From sequence record MN850645.1: DNA of 64,000 bases; one strand, written 5' to 3'. Below the pieces are notes generated by a model. That model saw only the letters and a list, made by a program, of their open reading frames with translations. It was not told where the DNA came from and did not search any database. The translations under genes were made by a program, and so were the position numbers. This document shows positions 1,919 to 31,998 of the stretch, one piece after another. Within the stretch, counting starts at the first letter, position 1. Every line of letters begins with the position of its first letter. The stretch is from Escherichia phage outra.

Positions 1919-3714
1919 AAATGTTTCTCCCTTTCTAATACCTCTTGCATTTTACCTTTATTATAAGGGCGAGAGTTAGGGGCAGACAGGTATCCTGACA
2001 CTCTTCTGATTACAGATATAGATTCTTCCTCATGATTGCCACAACTTGGACACTCGAAGCCTTTAGCTGTTGCCTTAAATTCACCATGAAAACCACATTT
2101 GAAACACTGATCTACAGGTTGGTTCACGCCAAAATAAGGAATTTTGTTGTAGGCATAATCTACAAGGGTTTCCAGTGCTTGCAAGTTATTTTTAAGGTTT
2201 GGTGTTTCTACATAGCCTATGTTCCCACCATTACTGATTTGTGCAAAACCTTCCTCATAATCCCACTTTTGGAACGGGGTAGTGTGCATCCACACAGGTT
2301 GATGGAAAGAGTTTGTCAAGTAGTCACGATCAATAGAACCAGGATAGCGATCATTTAATGCTTTGGCAAATTTATAACACAAGGATTCTGCTGGTGTTCC
2401 ATACAAACTAAAAGCTAAACCAGAACGTTCTTTAAATGTGCCACAGATATCCTTCATATATTGAAGGATGTTTTTACCCATTGCTTTTGGATTGGTGTTA
2501 CCTGGGTATAAAATCTCCATAGCTTCTGCTAAACCTACATAACCGATACTAATAGAGGCATAACCACCTTCGAATAGCTTACCAATCTCTTCATTAGCTT
2601 CTAGTCGAGCTAAAGCCCCTTCCATAAACAATGTAGGGTTTTGAGATGCTTTGGTATGTCTAATACGGTTAACACGTAGCATATGTGCCTTATACGCCAT
2701 CTCCATATGTTGTTCCAACAGTTCAGTAAATAAGATGCCCTTTTCACGGGACTCTGCTGCAATGATAGGTAAGTTTAAAGAAACTACGCCTAAGTTGAAA
2801 CGACCATCATATTTTTCACCTTGCTCTGTTGCATAGTATGACAAGAAGCTACGGCAACCCATGCTTGTGACGCGACCATCTGAAGATCCTGTAACTTCTT
2901 TGTTTAAAGGTACAGAGATAAAATCAGGATAAATGCGTTCAGCACAACACTCCATTGCCAGTTGCTTCAAATCATAATTTGGATCGCCAGCTTTCATGTT
3001 AACACCATCTTCCAAGAAGAAGATAACTTTAGGAAACACAGGAGTTACCCTATCTTTTCCCAATCCTTGTTTGTGCACCATTAGGTAGTTTTTAGTGATC
3101 ATTCTACCAAAAGCAGAGGTATCCAAACCTAAACTAATTGTTATAAAAGGTGACTGACCATTTACACTCATTAGAGTGTTCACCTGGTAGATTAAAGTTT
3201 GCATTGCATCATAGACCTGTTTATCTACCATACGCATAGCAATATCATAATCGCCAACATCGGCATATATTTTATTAAAACTTGCTTTAACGTATTGACT
3301 AAGCCCAGTATCAACATGTGCACAAGTTTGTCCACCATATTGGCTAGAAGCTACTGCTTGAATAATTTGAGTTAGGACAGTAGTCGCTACACCGATAGAT
3401 TTTGGTTTTTCAATATGTGCATTACCAATACGGAAACCGTTCTCAAGCATATCTTGGTAATTTACCAGGCAACAATTAGTTAAAGGTGAGAGTAAATAAT
3501 CTAAATCGTGAATGTGACCATACCCACTTTTATGCCATTCTGCCAGATCTTCCGGTAAAATATGGGTCATTGCCATGTGCTTGCTTAGGATACCTGCTAG
3601 TAAGTCTCGGTGAGTATTAACAATCATTGCAGGTTTGTTTGCATTTTCACGAGTAAATTCTTCGGATGTTTGTTCGAGGAATCCGATTACATCCTCATAT
3701 AGTTTTTGGGTCAT
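1915..3714 (-). CDS. nrdD: anaerobic ribonucleoside-triphosphate reductase (class III)
   Basis: C-terminal Zn ribbon CFKCG...CPSCG and glycyl-radical motif RVSGYLS; start moved to ATG 3714 with GGAGGA SD because track start 3744 lies inside a terminator hairpin. Confidence 0.85.
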   Translation of the reverse strand: MTQKLYEDVIGFLEQTSEEFTRENANKPAMIVNTHRDLLAGILSKHMAMTHILPEDLAEWHKSGYGHIHDLDYLLSPLTNCCLVNYQDMLENGFRIGNAHIEKPKSIGVATTVLTQIIQAVASSQYGGQTCAHVDTGLSQYVKASFNKIYADVGDYDIAMRMVDKQVYDAMQTLIYQVNTLMSVNGQSPFITISLGLDTSAFGRMITKNYLMVHKQGLGKDRVTPVFPKVIFFLEDGVNMKAGDPNYDLKQLAMECCAERIYPDFISVPLNKEVTGSSDGRVTSMGCRSFLSYYATEQGEKYDGRFNLGVVSLNLPIIAAESREKGILFTELLEQHMEMAYKAHMLRVNRIRHTKASQNPTLFMEGALARLEANEEIGKLFEGGYASISIGYVGLAEAMEILYPGNTNPKAMGKNILQYMKDICGTFKERSGLAFSLYGTPAESLCYKFAKALNDRYPGSIDRDYLTNSFHQPVWMHTTPFQKWDYEEGFAQISNGGNIGYVETPNLKNNLQALETLVDYAYNKIPYFGVNQPVDQCFKCGFHGEFKATAKGFECPSCGNHEEESISVIRRVSGYLSAPNSRPYNKGKMQEVLEREKHF

Positions 3715-3720
3715 TAATCC

Positions 3721-3754
3721 TCCGTGGAAAATAAAAGCCAGCATTAAGCTGGCT
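3721..3754 (-). terminator. rho-independent terminator
   Basis: stem AGCCAGC/GCTGGCT (3736-3754) followed on minus strand by TTTATTTTCC. Confidence 0.5.
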
Positions 3755-3803
3755 TTAGGGTGGATCTTTATTTTAAATCTTTTTCGTAAGATTGTCCTTG
3801 ATC

Positions 3804-4754
3804 TTAGTCAAGGTTTTTGGTAATACGTGTACAACCATCAGAAGTCAAACCGTCAACTTGAGTTTCCCAAGTGCCATGAATATTTCGGAACAATGTTGTT
3901 ACACCTTTTGGTTCATTAATAATGATTGCCATAACAAGTTTAGGATCGATAACAGACATAATCTTTTCCTCAATACCCTCTGTAATAACATTATTACGCA
4001 CAATATTAATTACATCTTCTTGTACAGAAAGGGTACTTACGTTCTTAAGAGTATATACCTGCTGCGTAGTGTAAATGATACGAACATAACTTACAGAACG
4101 AGTAGGCACAGGTTTACGCGGTCGGCGAAAACGTGGTTTTGGTGAAGATTCAGTCTTACTTTCATTTTTTGAATAATACTCCTCAAACAGTTTAGTAAAT
4201 GTTTTTACATCAACTACAAACCGATCTTTCCTATATGGAGAATTCTTATGTGCACCATTAATACCACTGTTTTCATCGAAGAAAGTAATGTTTTCTTCAG
4301 TTGAATATGTTAGATAATGGTCTGCATCTTTCCAATGTGGTTGTGGACAATGCGGATTACAAACGGAAAGCAGATAACTAATATCTTCTTCCGTTGCACT
4401 AGTATCCAGGAAACACGTATTGTGCACAGTCAGTTGTACTTTTGCAACCATATCCATTTCTTTATCCTCGTTGGCAAGATATTCAGTACGAATAATTTCC
4501 AGAAAACCTTCAGGTGTTACTTCCATAAATGTGTATTCAGGGTGAAGTTCCATATATTCAAATCCACAACCATCTAATTGCTGTAGGAAGTTAGGATAGA
4601 AGAACAAGTCATTAACACTATGAATCAGATCATTGATTTCTGCTTCAGATGTGTAACCAAAACTTTTGTGAATTGCTTCATTAAGAATATGCAGGATACC
4701 CATCTCTTCTGCTGCTTTTTTAACTTCCAGTTTATTAGCGTAAAATGCAATCAT
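3804..4754 (-). CDS. hypothetical protein (316 aa)
   Basis: long ORF in operon orientation, no recognisable motif. Confidence 0.6.
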   Translation of the reverse strand: MIAFYANKLEVKKAAEEMGILHILNEAIHKSFGYTSEAEINDLIHSVNDLFFYPNFLQQLDGCGFEYMELHPEYTFMEVTPEGFLEIIRTEYLANEDKEMDMVAKVQLTVHNTCFLDTSATEEDISYLLSVCNPHCPQPHWKDADHYLTYSTEENITFFDENSGINGAHKNSPYRKDRFVVDVKTFTKLFEEYYSKNESKTESSPKPRFRRPRKPVPTRSVSYVRIIYTTQQVYTLKNVSTLSVQEDVINIVRNNVITEGIEEKIMSVIDPKLVMAIIINEPKGVTTLFRNIHGTWETQVDGLTSDGCTRITKNLD

Positions 4755-18369: not shown

Positions 18370-18921
18370 ATGCGGATTACTGATAAGTATGTGTTCTTCT
18401 TCTCGGCAAAAGATGAATTTAGCAACTGGTATCTATCATCTTTTATTGAACCTTTAGCTCCCAAGTATAATAATTCTATTACAAGTTCTGTTGAATTTAC
18501 TTGTGTGGAACAATATATGATGTGGAGAAAAGCATGTTTGTTTTATGATTACAACATTGCATCTTCTATTTTAACCGGAGATCTAAGATATACAGGAGAA
18601 AAAGAACAGGCATATTATAAGCGACTAGGTAGATTAGTTAAAGATTACGATGAAGCTACTTGGACTTCTTTACGGGAGAAGATTGTCAAGCGTGGTTTGT
18701 ATCTTAAATACACACAAAATGAAGATCTCAAAAATAAACTTATCGCTTACGCAGATAAGGAGTTCGTAGAGGCAAGCCCTTATGATTCTATTTATGGTAT
18801 CAAAATGGGAATGTGGGATCGTGATGTGGAAAATAAGGACTGTTGGAAAGGACAAAATCTTTTAGGAAAATGGCATACAGACCTTGCTGTTTATCTAAAA
18901 GCACAATCTGATATTTCCTGA
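18370..18921 (+). CDS. NADAR-family (YbiA-like, DUF1768) protein
   Basis: FFFS..DEFSNW, EQYMMWRKA and FVEASPYDSIYGIKMG blocks match the YbiA/NADAR pattern; ATG overlaps upstream stop (TAAATG). Confidence 0.65.
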   Translation: MRITDKYVFFFSAKDEFSNWYLSSFIEPLAPKYNNSITSSVEFTCVEQYMMWRKACLFYDYNIASSILTGDLRYTGEKEQAYYKRLGRLVKDYDEATWTSLREKIVKRGLYLKYTQNEDLKNKLIAYADKEFVEASPYDSIYGIKMGMWDRDVENKDCWKGQNLLGKWHTDLAVYLKAQSDIS

Positions 18922-19136
18922 TATTTTGAAAATTTTTATTTTTATAAAAAGGGGTGTGGGTTTCATGTACGGAAATCCACCCTCTGAATAATATATCCAG
19001 AGTAAATATTATTCTGTACTCTGTTAATAAAGTATTTAATTTGTTTGTTTGACTATGGTATCTGATCTTTAAAAGGCATACTATCTCTTAACTACTACTT
19101 ATAACAGAACAGTAAAATCATTTTTATAAAAAGGAC

Positions 19137-19340
19137 AAAATTATTTAAAGTTTTTACAGATTTTTGGGTACAAATTTTGAAAATGAAAAGTTCAAGTTTG
19201 GTCAAAATTATTTAAAGTTTTTGTACGTATTTCTATCCAGATTTTGAAAATGAAAACTTCAATTTTTTAAAAATTCCCCAGTTTATTTAAAGTTTTTTTG
19301 CCTTTTTCCGTAGAAAAATCAAAAATGAAAAGTTCAATTT
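19137..19340. repeat. three tandem imperfect direct repeats of about 67 bp
   Basis: each unit contains TTATTTAAAGTTTTT ... GAAAATGAAAAGTTCAA. Confidence 0.7.
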
Positions 19341-19363
19341 CGTGTTTTTATGGGTGTGCGTAT

Positions 19364-19472
19364 GATAATCATTTTCATTTGTAAATGAGAATCATTATCA
19401 TTTAAGTATGTAAGTGATAATCATTCTCAGTAAGAGAATGAGAATCATTAGCAAATGAGAATTTTCTCATTT
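19364..19472. promoter_or_regulatory. cluster of Fur-box-like palindromes (AATGAGAATCATTATCA etc.)
   Basis: 19384-19400 matches 14/15 of the E. coli Fur consensus core ATGATAATCATTATC; further GATAATCATTCTC-type palindromes at 19416-19472. Confidence 0.5.
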
Positions 19473-19734
19473 AGAGAATAACGCGCAGGGGCGGTGTTTG
19501 TCTCGCGCTCCCGTGTCCCCTCGCCATACAATAAGAATAGCATAACCAACAACAAAAGCAAGCGATTATTTTTATCTTTACATTTCTTTACAAATTTATT
19601 TTAGACGAGCTACCGGCGATCAACCTTCCAACCAGTAGTGCCCTGGTATGTTAGCCCCGCCTTTACGCCGTGGGGGTGGCGCTTCCTCTTCTGTATGTAA
19701 AACAGTATAAGCCCGATCCCTGGGCTTGTCAAGA

Positions 19735-20001
19735 TTATTTTTTGTTTTCTTGCCAGGATAGGACACCTAGCCAAAAATACATGTCGCCCCGCGCCCCTGG
19801 CGGGATCTTGCTTTCCCCGCCGCCACTGCAAGCCCATAGATAACCATTTGCGAACGTATCAAAATGATCTATTTCTTCCACCTTATGATCGCCCAGGTTG
19901 AGAACGGTTTCAACCTTTAAGCCCGTTGCGCTTGCTACCTGGTGCACCGTGCCGCCTTGCCAGCCTAATGAGTGCATGAGGTGTAAAGTAGTATTTGTCA
20001 T
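19735..20001 (-). CDS. hypothetical protein (88 aa), GC-rich, divergent from island
   Basis: ATG 20001 with AAGGG SD; possible minus-strand promoter TTGCTA-18-TATTAT at 20049-20078. Confidence 0.45.
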   Translation of the reverse strand: MTNTTLHLMHSLGWQGGTVHQVASATGLKVETVLNLGDHKVEEIDHFDTFANGYLWACSGGGESKIPPGARGDMYFWLGVLSWQENKK

Positions 20002-20112
20002 GGTATCGCCCTTTCTTTGATGTGCGCCCTGGTTGGCGCGGTAGAAAGATAATAGCCCCTTTCCTTTATAGATAGCAAGCAAAAAAGAAATGAAAAAAGA
20101 TTAAAAAAGGGG

Positions 20113-20141
20113 TTGACGTTCCTCACCTGGTAGCGTATTAT
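20113..20141 (+). promoter_or_regulatory. sigma70-like promoter
   Basis: -35 TTGACG 20113-18, 17-bp spacer, -10 TATTAT 20136-41. Confidence 0.55.
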
Positions 20142-21404: not shown

Positions 21405-21677
21405 TTGTTTTTTCTAAAAGTTTTTGATAATGTGATCGCTTTTGAACATGCTACAACGTTCAACCTGGCGAGATACGCTATCAGGTTTAAAGATAATGTT
21501 TATCCCCGTGCTGGTGGCGGTTACACTATCTTTAATCATCGTAACGCTCAATTAACAGATATAACGAATCCAGATCCTGGAGTGTATCGCATAGGCTGGC
21601 TACCGTCAAAAGACGCGGCAAGCATGTTTAAGGTGTGTAAACTACTAACAGAAGAGGCGAACGAACATGGGGCGTGA
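21405..21677 (+). CDS. hypothetical protein (90 aa), TTG start
   Basis: GGAGGA SD before TTG. Confidence 0.45.
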   Translation: MFFLKVFDNVIAFEHATTFNLARYAIRFKDNVYPRAGGGYTIFNHRNAQLTDITNPDPGVYRIGWLPSKDAASMFKVCKLLTEEANEHGA

Positions 21678-22221
21678 ATATGTGATCCAGTCATGGGTAA
21701 AGCATGACGCTAATGATCCGCGCATAATACCAGATGACATGATCGATCACATGGTAGGGTACAGCGGGGAGCAGATAGGGAATCGAGCGGCAAAGAGCAA
21801 CGGGCACACAAAGACGCGATCCGTTCGCCCTGGTTGGCTGGCAAATGGTAACGCTGACATTGCAAGCGCCGCAGATCCAAGCGATGACGCTAAAAATAAT
21901 CCCTTATATAGCATTGATCCGGCTTTTAAGGTGTTAGAAGAGTATCCCGCTAAATTAGCCGCACTAGATAAGGCATACGAAGAAAAGCGCATGGCATGGA
22001 CTGTATACAACACCGCTAAAATGGTGCTAGATGCAAAATTGATTAAAGCCCAGGAGAAGATCAATAAACTTGTTGCAGTAGCGCAAGAGGAAGACCAGGA
22101 CGACCAGGAGGAAGAGGAAGAAATCATGCCTACCCTGGAAGAGGAAGAGATCCAGCCATACATGCCGACGGAAGAGGAAAAAAGACAAGCCCTAAAAAAT
22201 TATGAAAATTGCATTGTGTAA
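21667..22221 (+). CDS. hypothetical protein with acidic C-terminal tail (184 aa)
   Basis: ORF; C-terminus QEEDQDDQEEEEE. Confidence 0.5.
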   Translation: MGREYVIQSWVKHDANDPRIIPDDMIDHMVGYSGEQIGNRAAKSNGHTKTRSVRPGWLANGNADIASAADPSDDAKNNPLYSIDPAFKVLEEYPAKLAALDKAYEEKRMAWTVYNTAKMVLDAKLIKAQEKINKLVAVAQEEDQDDQEEEEEIMPTLEEEEIQPYMPTEEEKRQALKNYENCIV

Positions 22222-30496: not shown

Positions 30497-30570
30497 AATG
30501 ATAATCATTCTTATTTATAGCTGATTATTTATGCAATAAACTGCATAATGCAATAATGATAATCATTCTT
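30497..30570. promoter_or_regulatory. two Fur-box-like sites (AAATGATAATCATTCTTA; AATAATGATAATCATTCTT)
   Basis: GATAATCATT core shared with Fur consensus. Confidence 0.45.
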
Positions 30571-31424
30571 AACTTATGACCATCTAACCTATAAAATAAT
30601 AAGCTATCTAACTAAATTAAAACTAATTATCTCACCTTTATTTATAACTTACTGTTACTATCTCATTGATAACCTTATATTAAACAACAATAACTAATAT
30701 AAATCATTACTAAGCTAAATATAATCTATCTAACCTTTAAAACTATAACTATAATCTATCGAATTGTTGCACAAAGTAACTATTAAATTGTTAGTAACAT
30801 TGCTAAATAATTAATATCCTATCTATTTATGATCTAATCTTTACCTTCCTATTTATTACCTAAATAACCATTTCATATAGTAATTATTTCATACAATAAC
30901 TATAACAAGAAACATAATTCGCAAGCGTATCATTAGCAGCCTATGCCGGACACATAGGCGGCTAATAATAACGCAACTACACACCCCACATAATAACCAT
31001 CACCGATAGTTATTATTTGTGCTTATGTAGCTTGCAACAATTGCAAGCGCAACAATATACTAAGGTATATTGTATCCCTTACATTGTTGCGGTGCGTTAT
31101 TATTAGCTAATGTTTAGAACATTGGCTATAATATAAGCTGCATATAATAAGCTATTCAATAATAAACATCGTGAATAATGACATTGATGATCATAATGCG
31201 CCACCCTCCAGGGGGCGCTATGTGAACACAAAGAAATCTTTCTTATCAAGAAAATATTATCACTATTGCGCAAAATTATTTACATCTGAATAGATGATTT
31301 TTCATACTATTATTGTTATTTGTTGAGCATAGTTATAGCCTATTTGTTGAGCCTACTTTCTTAAAAGCGCAATAAATCAGAATTATCTTGATTTTTAGTG
31401 CGTTTTATAGTATAGAAAATATGC

Positions 31425-31443
31425 AAATGATAATCATTATCAG
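31425..31443. promoter_or_regulatory. near-consensus Fur box (AATGATAATCATTATC)
   Basis: 16 contiguous bases identical to positions 4-19 of E. coli Fur consensus GATAATGATAATCATTATC. Confidence 0.55.
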
Positions 31444-31607
31444 CTATCTTCCACGGGTAGCACTATTTCACGCCAGATCATTTCATTTGGCAAGGTGTAT
31501 ATAGATGTTTAGACTTGCCAAGTTATTGATTTACTTAGAATTTATCTATTTTGTTGTGAGTAGTACCTTTCTTGCTTAGAAAATAATCAAAAGTCTTATA
31601 AGTCATT

Positions 31608-31640
31608 GAATGATAATACAAATGATAATTATTCTCATTG
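31608..31640. promoter_or_regulatory. Fur-box-like tandem site (TGAATGATAATACAAATGATAATTATTCTCATTG)
   Basis: repeated GATAAT hexamers and palindromic half-sites. Confidence 0.4.
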
Positions 31641-31998
31641 ATATTTGAGGGGGACGGTCGGCAGAAATCGGGGGGTGCTGAAAATCGCGTTAAGCACCTC
31701 TCGCAAGCGAGCAGTATTTTGCGGCAAGTTATTGATATTATTGGCTTTACGCTTATGAAAAGGGGGTGTGTCGAAATAAAGCGGGTATACCGGAAAATTT
31801 TTGTGGCATAGATATTTATTTGTCTATATTATGTACAAAGGGGTGTGTTAAAAATATTAGGTATATATAGAATAATTGATAGGGAAATCCTATACTAATC
31901 CCTCCATTAATGATGTTTCTATGTTACTGTTCTTGTAATAGATGAAAAGACGCTGTATGATGTGTGGCATGAAACGTAAACTTATAAAGGAGTCTGAT

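Follow-up and report, generated by a model that had tools for sequence, protein, structure and literature searches.

The minus strand between 19.36 and 20.08 kb of a 64,000-nt stretch of DNA from Escherichia phage outra (MN850645.1; the whole stretch is referred to as the window) is a row of independent host-RNA-polymerase units. The first unit is a single gene, an open reading frame (ORF) at 19735-20001(-) encoding a protein of 88 amino acids (aa), with its own promoter, leader, ribosome-binding site (RBS) and terminator hairpin. It is followed by promoter P1 with a structured RNA that we call RNA1, by promoter P2 with a second RNA element, RNA2, and by an array of Fur-like sites. What is new here is RNA1, a small RNA gene that is absent from Rfam; the protein family itself is already in PHROG. 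As an explanation of the region as a whole, we favor, with somewhat better than even confidence, an accessory protein-binding cassette gene and a trans-acting small RNA (sRNA), RNA1, within this row of independent units. The original prediction, made from the letters alone, had described a GC-rich divergent ORF that might encode a regulator; the observation of a GC-rich ORF is confirmed, and its interpretation is partly supported, in the divergent gene with its own promoter but not in the regulator.

The ∼100-nt RNA1 (19596-19698, minus strand) scores 111.6 bits against a covariance model built from 20 copies, and is the only copy in the window. It comprises a hairpin (H1), an H-type pseudoknot formed by pairing of the H1 loop with the following G-run, an irregular stem (P3) whose tip varies in length, and an invariant 3′ motif, AAGGUnRAUCGCCGG, that appears unpaired. 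In a representative alignment of 16 sequences, paired cells make up 89.7% of the total and both sides have changed in 10 of the 15 pairs, giving a covariation score of 0.309, compared with 0.098 for shuffled alignments (none of 500 reaches the observed value) and at most 0.064 for slid controls. The pseudoknot itself varies from CCCC/GGGG to CCAA/UUGG, CCAG/CUGG, and CCAU/AUGG. The G-U pairs of RNA1 correspond to C-A mismatches on the opposite strand, such that they are possible only on the minus-strand transcript. The element is non-coding: indels of 1–9 nt among copies break every frame, and the predicted start site is not followed by a start codon.

The promoter P1 (19704-19732, minus strand) begins two nucleotides past the stop codon of the ORF and is the best promoter match of the region, a near-consensus 11/12 with a −35 element TTGACA (19732-19727), a 17-nt spacer, and a −10 element TATACT (19709-19704). 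A promoter of at least 9/12, positioned to start at the 5′ end of the RNA, accompanies 35 of 37 distinct RNA1 copies, compared with 2.2% of random windows. The two outliers are misplaced partial matches, and the flank of L158 (L numbers are our labels for related sequences) shows a promoter upstream of RNA1. A canonical rho-independent terminator directly follows RNA1 in its most distant copies (L102, L158, and L059). Because of the covariation, including that of the pseudoknot, the positioned promoters, and the terminators of the distant copies, comparative sequence analysis identifies RNA1 as a genuine structured small RNA gene.

BLASTN finds RNA1 in 226 GenBank phage records, always as a single copy, from phages of Escherichia, Klebsiella, Salmonella, Cronobacter, Pectobacterium, Enterobacter, Proteus, and Serratia; among the matches listed, most copies have no annotated feature beneath them. 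Divergent copies were found in a dozen further viral contigs with the covariance model and nhmmer, and an exact-pattern scan of IMG/VR placed RNA1 in PVP-SE1-, CR3-, and phiTE-sized contigs, some of which have no member of the 88-aa protein family at the locus. RNA1 is ∼80%–85% identical where the adjacent protein is 42%–48% identical; the protein of Klebsiella phi1_175008, for example, is 42% identical, and the element downstream is ∼84% identical in a Klebsiella relative. No RNA1 homolog or target was found in 5,426 E. coli genomes, and the degenerate pattern TNNAAGGTNNATCGCCGG gave mostly chance matches, with RNA1 at none of 120 bacterial loci among the matches listed (nhmmer). No site complementary to the invariant motif occurs elsewhere in the window. 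Rfam 15 gave no match at E ≤ 1 over 10 kb, and at E ≤ 10 over 321 nt only ohsC, whose 16 bits fall short of the gathering score of 50; ARAGORN detected no tRNA or tmRNA.

Several further candidate features of RNA1 were rejected. A long-range helix, GGCGG/UCGCC, proposed by RNAalifold for close relatives, has its 5′ strand replaced in divergent copies while its 3′ strand is invariant, and a GGCUA/UAGCU pairing was rejected on inspection of the alignment. A mini-ORF in the invariant 3′ motif, GUG-GAU-CGC-CGG-UAG, has a start position that varies between GUG, GUU, and GUC. A relationship to pseudo-ToxI, a lead from phiTE, was dropped, there being no similarity to any locus.

RNA1 is also a site of insertion. 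In L025 (reverse strand, ∼2780-3530) RNA1 is interrupted exactly at GGTA|GCTCGCC by an HNH gene, behind which lies another, divergent copy of RNA1 that has a promoter of its own; in one Klebsiella phage an annotated HNH endonuclease lies beneath the RNA1 match. The GenBank record of LTH01 (L008, L291) was opened at this same junction, GGTA|GCTCGCC. The end of that record was considered as a physical terminus inside RNA1 and rejected, as the record continues circularly at its start. By eye, an inserted ORF that is putatively homing-endonuclease-like also lies inside RNA2 in L035 (∼3480-3900). Homing endonuclease insertions are to be expected in sequences of high conservation that are probably essential.

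In the account that we favor, RNA1 would be expressed early as a small RNA in its own right, and its pseudoknotted fold would offer the invariant, single-stranded 3′ motif to a partner in trans, which could be a protein or a nucleic acid. A different function for the same fold would be that of a cis-acting leader, riboswitch-like or anti-terminating, that gates read-through from P1 into RNA2, the Fur-box array, and the repeats beyond. The combination of a pseudoknotted fold and invariant unpaired nucleotides is typical of leaders that bind ligands, and the terminator scan found no terminator between RNA1 and P2 in the window. However, no ORF lies downstream on that strand, the distant copies end in a canonical terminator right after RNA1, and no Rfam riboswitch matches even at E ≤ 10, so that we regard a leader as very unlikely. 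On the plus strand, H1 together with CTTCCTCTTC (19666-19688) reads as terminator-like, and the same is seen in PVP-SE1; this site could stop read-through from the convergent plus-strand genes that end at 18921.

The protein-coding unit upstream of P1 lies where the original prediction had placed it, and every GenBank record annotates an 88-aa product from the ATG at 20001; the longest mechanical ORF is 19735-20082(-), 115 aa from a TTG, in which this ATG is internal. The surrounding 2 kb is 100% identical to Escherichia phage vB_EcoM_ESCO8 and 96%–98% identical to phi92, inny, Paula, and other Justusliebigvirus and Phapecoctavirus genomes. The homologs Phi92_gp224 (99% identity), inny_195, and PAULA_0094 are all labeled “hypothetical protein,” as are all named members of its 90%-identity cluster. 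The protein matches phrog_19316 with E = 2.1e-59 over its full length (residues 1–88 of an 88-position profile) and keeps the signature columns G13, G16, G17, T18, H20, Q21, G27, W77, and G79; all 53 aligned family members match this profile and 52 of them also match phrog_33408. A profile search of 1.84 billion representatives returned 211 clusters at E ≤ 1e-3, most of them 80–120 aa long and matched over their full length; a few large leucine-rich repeat proteins among them are false positives.

The family signature consists of LMxALGWQGGT(I/V)HQVAxETGL near the N terminus and GNxxFWxGV near the C terminus. An AlphaFold2 model from an 18-sequence alignment (predicted local distance difference test [pLDDT] 93.4, predicted template modeling score [pTM] 0.86) is all-helical, with helices at residues 4–11, 19–26, 30–38, 44–58, and 74–86, and the protein is mildly acidic. 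The N-terminal module, comprising a helix, the GWQGGT(I/V)HQ loop, and two further helices, is almost invariant: residues 1–36 are nearly identical among the Justusliebigvirus, Phapecoctavirus, and Vequintavirinae copies. The middle of the protein, residues 37–75, is highly variable and fast-evolving, and the C-terminal helix (FWLGV) is again conserved. The invariant residues G13, W14, G16, G17, T18, H20, and Q21 sit in the loop that precedes helix 2. The module (∼25 aa) recurs inside larger phage proteins (L056, L042, L047, and L058) on contigs of 26%–64% GC, once beside a DUF551 domain and several times beside Cys-rich, zinc-ribbon-like segments.

Pairwise dN/dS, the ratio of non-synonymous to synonymous substitution rates, is 0.07–0.32 for all but one near-identical pair, with changes mostly at third codon positions, which indicates purifying selection on the ORF at the sequence level. 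Because its homologs are length-conserved (86–93 aa mostly retained down to ∼41% identity), its family is wide, dN/dS is low with an excess of third-position changes, and the AlphaFold2 model is confident, comparative analysis supports the ORF as a real, selected gene. The converse possibility, that it is untranslated and conserved for another reason, for example as an RNA or DNA element, could draw on the literature, where no proteomic or ribosome-profiling evidence for the ORF was found, and on the choice of an opposite-strand ORF here by the annotators of phAPEC8. It is extremely improbable, and is already largely refuted by a dN/dS well below 1 with its third-position bias, by the retention of both frame and length across distant homologs, and by a coherent protein family, confidently predicted to fold, that extends across unrelated phages. 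The phAPEC8 annotation (RefSeq NC_020079; L011, 1659-2000) places G377_gp009 across the 3′ end of the gp224 homolog and RNA1; standing in place of the conserved gene, it is probably a mis-annotation.

The position of the gene in what had been called the most GC-rich stretch of the window holds with two qualifications. At 48.2% GC, 19501-20000 ties with 21501-22000 as the richest 500-nt bin, most of the window being 35%–40% GC. Furthermore, the stretch is not the ORF alone, since about a third of it consists of the two conserved non-coding RNA elements. In 50-nt bins, GC peaks at 19650 (60%) and 19750 (58%), and high GC reaches ∼250 nt past the stop codon; because of these two peaks, we take the GC maximum to cover both the ORF and the non-coding DNA downstream. 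Its sources are the gene, at 50% GC compared with 39% at the locus (38%–39% for the genome), the GC-rich stems of RNA1, and RNA2. Across the family, the GC content of the gene is above that of the genome only in low-GC phages, and copies in phages of 50%–58% GC match their genomes.

The promoter of the gene (20049-20078, minus strand) consists of a −35 element TTGCTA (20078-20073), an 18-nt spacer, and a −10 element TATTAT (20054-20049). Its score of 9/12 is weak alone, as the scan found 14 such sites where 7.1 were expected. Its hexamers hold their position in distant relatives although the spacers have diverged (TTGCTA/TATAGT in W70, TTGCAC/TATACT in Klebsiella phi1_175008, and TTGCTA/TACAAT in TH18, from an alignment of the upstream regions), good comparative evidence for a real sigma-70-type promoter, as proposed originally. 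Its divergence from the promoter at 20113 is likewise borne out: it stands back to back with TTGACG-17-TATTAT (20113-20141, plus strand; 10/12), the first promoter of the plus-strand small-gene block, and both are conserved in the alignment. The leader contains an inverted repeat, GCGCC-AACCAG-GGCGC (20024-20039, minus strand), kept in the relatives from E. coli and Shigella and absent from the leaders of Klebsiella phi1_175008 and TH18, and a Shine-Dalgarno-like AAAGGG (20009-20014, minus strand) 7 nt before the ATG, where an RBS is annotated in phi92.

Eight nucleotides past the stop codon, a terminator-like hairpin, AAGCCC-AGGGATC-GGGCTT followed by ATACTGTTTT (19709-19727, minus strand), doubles as the spacer of P1, which holds a GC-rich hairpin in all relatives. 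The lone-gene layout is kept in Stephanstirmvirinae, Vequintavirinae, Klebsiella and Shigella relatives, and one Vibrio phage, and in eight distant phages the gene is oriented opposite to both of its neighbors. Because of the conserved promoter hexamers, the terminator hairpin, and this orientation, sequence comparison marks the gene as its own transcription unit. To the left of the non-coding region lies a 183-aa ORF, 18370-18921(+), “hypothetical” in most records; its counterpart in Shigella phage SF1-1 is labeled GTP cyclohydrolase II/riboflavin-biosynthesis-like.

The divergent-promoter anatomy described in the original prediction is thus right, and its extension to a helix-turn-helix (HTH) repressor of an early-operon switch is not supported. 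In such a model, the protein would bind 20049-20141, control the promoter of the plus-strand block, and regulate its own synthesis like Cro/CI. In its favor, the back-to-back promoters are conserved, and the segment proposed as the HTH, ASATGLKVETVLNL, does form the geometry: helices 19–26 and 30–38 are joined by T-G-L, with Ala, Gly, and Val at motif positions 5, 9, and 15, fitting the classical A-x3-G-x5-V spacing. In addition, one fusion protein has a sub-threshold match to HTH_Tnp_ISL3 (E = 0.067) on the same module, and the alternative small ORFs found at this position in other phages (see further results below) could reflect the kind of non-orthologous regulator replacement seen in lambdoid immunity regions.

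Against this, neither the protein nor the 53 family members match any HTH sequence family. The best Pfam matches of the 88-aa protein (E = 0.042–0.09) are to unrelated families; the 53 members gave none to HTH families at E ≤ 0.01, the sole match being DUF7930 in one member; and NCBIfam and PDB-sequence profile searches returned no HTH. Foldseek with the AlphaFold2 model found nothing below E = 2 in the PDB and family members only in BFVD, such that no three-helix fold superimposable on known HTH domains emerges. The N-terminal module has a net charge of zero or less in 92% of the 53 members (median −2). The would-be recognition helix (29–37) carries T/S, V, D/E/Q, I/L, and D/Y, with no conserved basic residue, and the invariant residues lie on the loop before helix 2 and not on helix 3. 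Finally, in the upstream alignment the gene-carrying phages share no operator-like palindrome between the promoters, the sole inverted repeat near them being that of the leader (20024-20039). Considered together, these data make a repressor of this type quite unlikely.

The position of the gene, between the divergent early promoter and P1, behaves at the sequence level as an exchangeable cassette site, because an unrelated ORF of ∼60 aa stands there in phages without the gp224 family. The protein was detected in 151 phage records, compared with 226 for RNA1. In PVP-SE1 (L014, 3625-3807) the slot holds a 60-aa ORF ending in AENGEVLADTL, and the same ORF end is found in L110 and L127; PVP-SE1 nevertheless retains the divergent promoters and everything downstream, a point against the repressor reading. 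The gene resembles a moron in having its own promoter and terminator around a single gene, a deviating GC content, and a variable presence among relatives. The likeness is confined to this cassette architecture, as the carriers are virulent myoviruses of ∼140–155 kb, to which prophage expression and a benefit to the lysogen do not apply. Gene neighborhoods of family members from unrelated phages gave no functional clue.

We propose that the protein is an early, dispensable, moron-like cassette product. Its invariant Gly/Trp/His loop would bind another protein, of host or phage, and its variable middle would set the specificity, making it a host-takeover or anti-defense factor rather than a DNA-binding switch of the neighboring operon. 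On grounds of exclusion and of analogy, binding of another protein through the invariant loop is its most likely mode of action.

Alternatively, the protein and RNA1 could be functional partners, the protein binding or chaperoning RNA1 (or RNA2) or regulating P1. The gene lies directly upstream of P1 and RNA1 in Stephanstirmvirinae, Vequintavirinae, L032, L035, L103, and phiTE-like phages, and within ∼1 kb of RNA1 in other orientations in L013/L034 and L059/L102/L138/L158; a Vibrio phage has it directly upstream of RNA2, and the spacer of P1 is the gene’s own terminator hairpin. However, RNA1 occurs with no family member at the locus in PVP-SE1-, CR3-, and L064/L089/L100/L110-type phages, and the family occurs in many phage types that lack RNA1. 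The acidic module is a further point against a partnership, and conserved gene order alone can explain the adjacency, which in the sequences compared is frequent but not obligatory. We consider such a partnership unlikely.

Several observations weigh against the account of a protein-binding cassette gene beside a trans-acting sRNA. The argument for a protein-binding role proceeds by excluding other roles and by comparison with other small, acidic, early proteins of phages, and, given the HTH-like spacing of helices 19–26/30–38 and the sub-threshold HTH_Tnp_ISL3 match in the fusion protein, weak or atypical binding of nucleic acid is conceivable. RNA1 may also belong to a longer transcript, as no terminator lies between it and P2 in the window. 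Folded as a single sequence, 19478-19700(-) gives a minimum free energy that does not improve on shuffled sequence (z = 0.31), an uninformative result, and the structure of RNA2 is weakly supported, RNAalifold giving eight pairs, two of them with compensatory changes, at a weak energy. Literature searches found no transcript, ribosome-profiling, or proteome data for the locus. They likewise found no Fur boxes, sRNAs, transcriptomes, or these sequences described for this phage group.

Downstream of RNA1, a direct repeat, GTAAAGA-N3-GTAAAGA (19575-19591, minus strand), is present just upstream of the P2 −35 element and recurs in almost every relative; it is a candidate activator or UP-like site. 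P2 (19534-19561, minus strand; −35 TTGCTT at 19561-19556, 16 nt, −10 TATTCT at 19539-19534) was identified by positional conservation; here it scores 8/12, below the threshold of the scan, and relatives have stronger versions (TTGCAA/TATATT, TTGACC/GATAAT). It precedes RNA2 (19476-19527, minus strand), a GC-rich element of ∼50 nt in which alignment and RNAalifold indicate a closing stem, AURGCG/CGYYAU, and a conserved 3′ part, ACACCGnnCCUGCSCGYYAUUC. RNA2 is also found in a Vibrio phage without RNA1, in the order gene, RNA2, boxes.

The Fur-box consensus of Enterobacteria can be written as a 19-bp GATAATGATAATCATTATC or as a 7-1-7 palindrome, TGATAATnATTATCA. Beyond RNA2 lies an array of four to five Fur-box-like 7-1-7 palindromes (19363-19470; TGAGAATCATTATCA and similar), conserved downstream of RNA2 in relatives, with 15–16 of 19 matches to the 19-mer. 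Allowing up to two mismatches, the 7-1-7 motif occurs nine times in the window compared with 0.91 expected, a count reached in none of 100 shuffles, and six of the eight best 19-mer matches fall in two AT-rich non-coding regions. The second of these clusters (30499-31637) lies on the far side of the plus-strand small-gene block (20.1–30.5 kb) and contains a perfect TGATAATCATTATCA (31428-31442) and a 17/19 match to the 19-mer consensus at 31423. Directly after a Fur-like box in this second region there is a GC-rich segment, GGGGGACGGTCGGCAGAAATCGGGGGGTGC..., at 31640-31720(+), possibly another structured element.

Two boxes of the first array overlap a candidate promoter, P3 (19362-19391, minus strand; TTCTCA-18-TATCAT, 9/12, weak evidence), that reads into AT-rich repeats, and in relatives a promoter of the same direction likewise follows the boxes. 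The repeats are three direct copies of ∼70 bp at 26% GC (19120-19340), annotated as a repeat_region in phage inny, and are possibly origin- or iteron-like; relatives carry analogous ∼75-bp repeats with AAAAATTTTTT tracts. The order RNA1, repeat, P2, RNA2, boxes, promoter, AT-rich repeats is conserved across the phage group, with the boxes replaced by other, iteron-like repeats, AACTATCAC, in L100, L110, and L127.

This arrangement suggests a further alternative, in which the non-coding DNA from 19.1 to 19.73 kb is a transcription-activated origin of replication, either with T7-like tandem promoters into AT-rich repeats or with a ColE1 RNA II-like primer; Fur or a phage protein would bind the palindrome array, and the ORF would be a bystander cassette. 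P1, P2, and P3 all point toward the ORF-free, AT-rich repeats, the same order recurs in all relatives with the iteron-like replacement noted above, and a T7-type primase-helicase and a family A polymerase are among the proteins encoded by these phages. The rV5 genome paper, moreover, notes a non-coding box, bidirectional promoters, and an origin that it could not locate (PMC3606486). Yet GC skew has no extremum here and follows gene orientation, as also reported for rV5 (PMC3606486). The region contains neither DnaA boxes nor integration host factor (IHF) sites, the lack of DnaA boxes counting against an origin, and in L102, L158, and L059 RNA1 is a terminated, stand-alone gene that is followed by neither RNA2 nor palindromes nor repeats. 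The occurrence of four different base pairs at a single position of the pseudoknot also suggests a folded, functional RNA over a primer. An origin is possible, if on balance unlikely.

A broader proposal would join these elements: RNA1, RNA2, and the Fur-like array would form an unrecognized control hub of rV5-, phi92-, and PVP-SE1-like phages, with RNA1 as a trans decoy, anti-defense RNA, or replication primer, read-through into the AT-rich repeats gated by Fur, and the gene in the slot a lineage-specific partner or modulator. As a single proposition this is improbable.

Taken alone, the ORF is an ordinary conserved hypothetical gene, and the main gain from its analysis is that a wrong repressor annotation is avoided. 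RNA1, in contrast, lacks annotation in at least 226 sequenced genomes, from phages widely used in therapy and biocontrol (relatives of rV5, phi92, phAPEC8, PVP-SE1, CR3, and phiTE), is more conserved than the neighboring proteins, and is a target of homing endonucleases; to our knowledge, few structured RNAs of virulent phages have been described. RNA1 and the Fur-like sites offer testable handles on both the origin and the early regulatory logic of this phage group. The Fur-like sequences also raise the possibility of a lytic phage that reads the iron status of its host.

With known systems the region shares individual features. Phi92_gp224, PHROG 19316, and PHROG 33408 belong to the same family as the ORF product; these entries carry no function, and so they name the protein without explaining it. 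Like lambda-type Cro/CI, this is a small protein with an HTH-like helix pair, encoded at divergent back-to-back promoters by an early operon, but it has no sequence or structural similarity to them, its module is acidic, no operators were found, and the phage is a virulent 149-kb myovirus whereas Cro/CI phages are temperate. Like morons, the gene has its own promoter and terminator, sits between two transcription units, deviates in GC, and occupies a slot whose content differs among relatives; classical morons, however, have been described in phages that are temperate, with expression from the prophage. T4 AsiA and T7 Gp2, both small, acidic, and early, work by binding proteins of the host, and AsiA does not bind DNA with the HTH-like motif that it contains. 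The outra protein resembles these two in size (∼60–90 aa), in being helical and acidic, and in early promoters of the host-polymerase type, a likeness in possible mode of work and not in family membership.

The predicted Fur-like sites (four to five, with zero to two mismatches to the 7-1-7 motif) resemble enterobacterial Fur boxes in sequence and are clustered beyond chance. They differ in belonging to a phage that is virulent, in being placed downstream of an RNA element and not over a known iron-regulated promoter, and in that some related phages carry other repeats at their position. Small or origin-linked RNAs of phages and plasmids include lambda OOP RNA, the T4 species 1 and 2 RNAs, and the ColE1 RNA II primer, and the primary origin of T7 has tandem promoters and an AT-rich region. 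In general terms, the tandem promoters of outra facing AT-rich DNA recall the T7 primary origin, and RNA1 shares with OOP, species 1/2, and RNA II a short non-coding transcript, a strong host-type promoter, and a setting in a non-coding control region. In contrast to these RNAs, RNA1 has no similarity to any Rfam family, and its pseudoknot architecture and AAGGUnRAUCGCCGG motif are its own.

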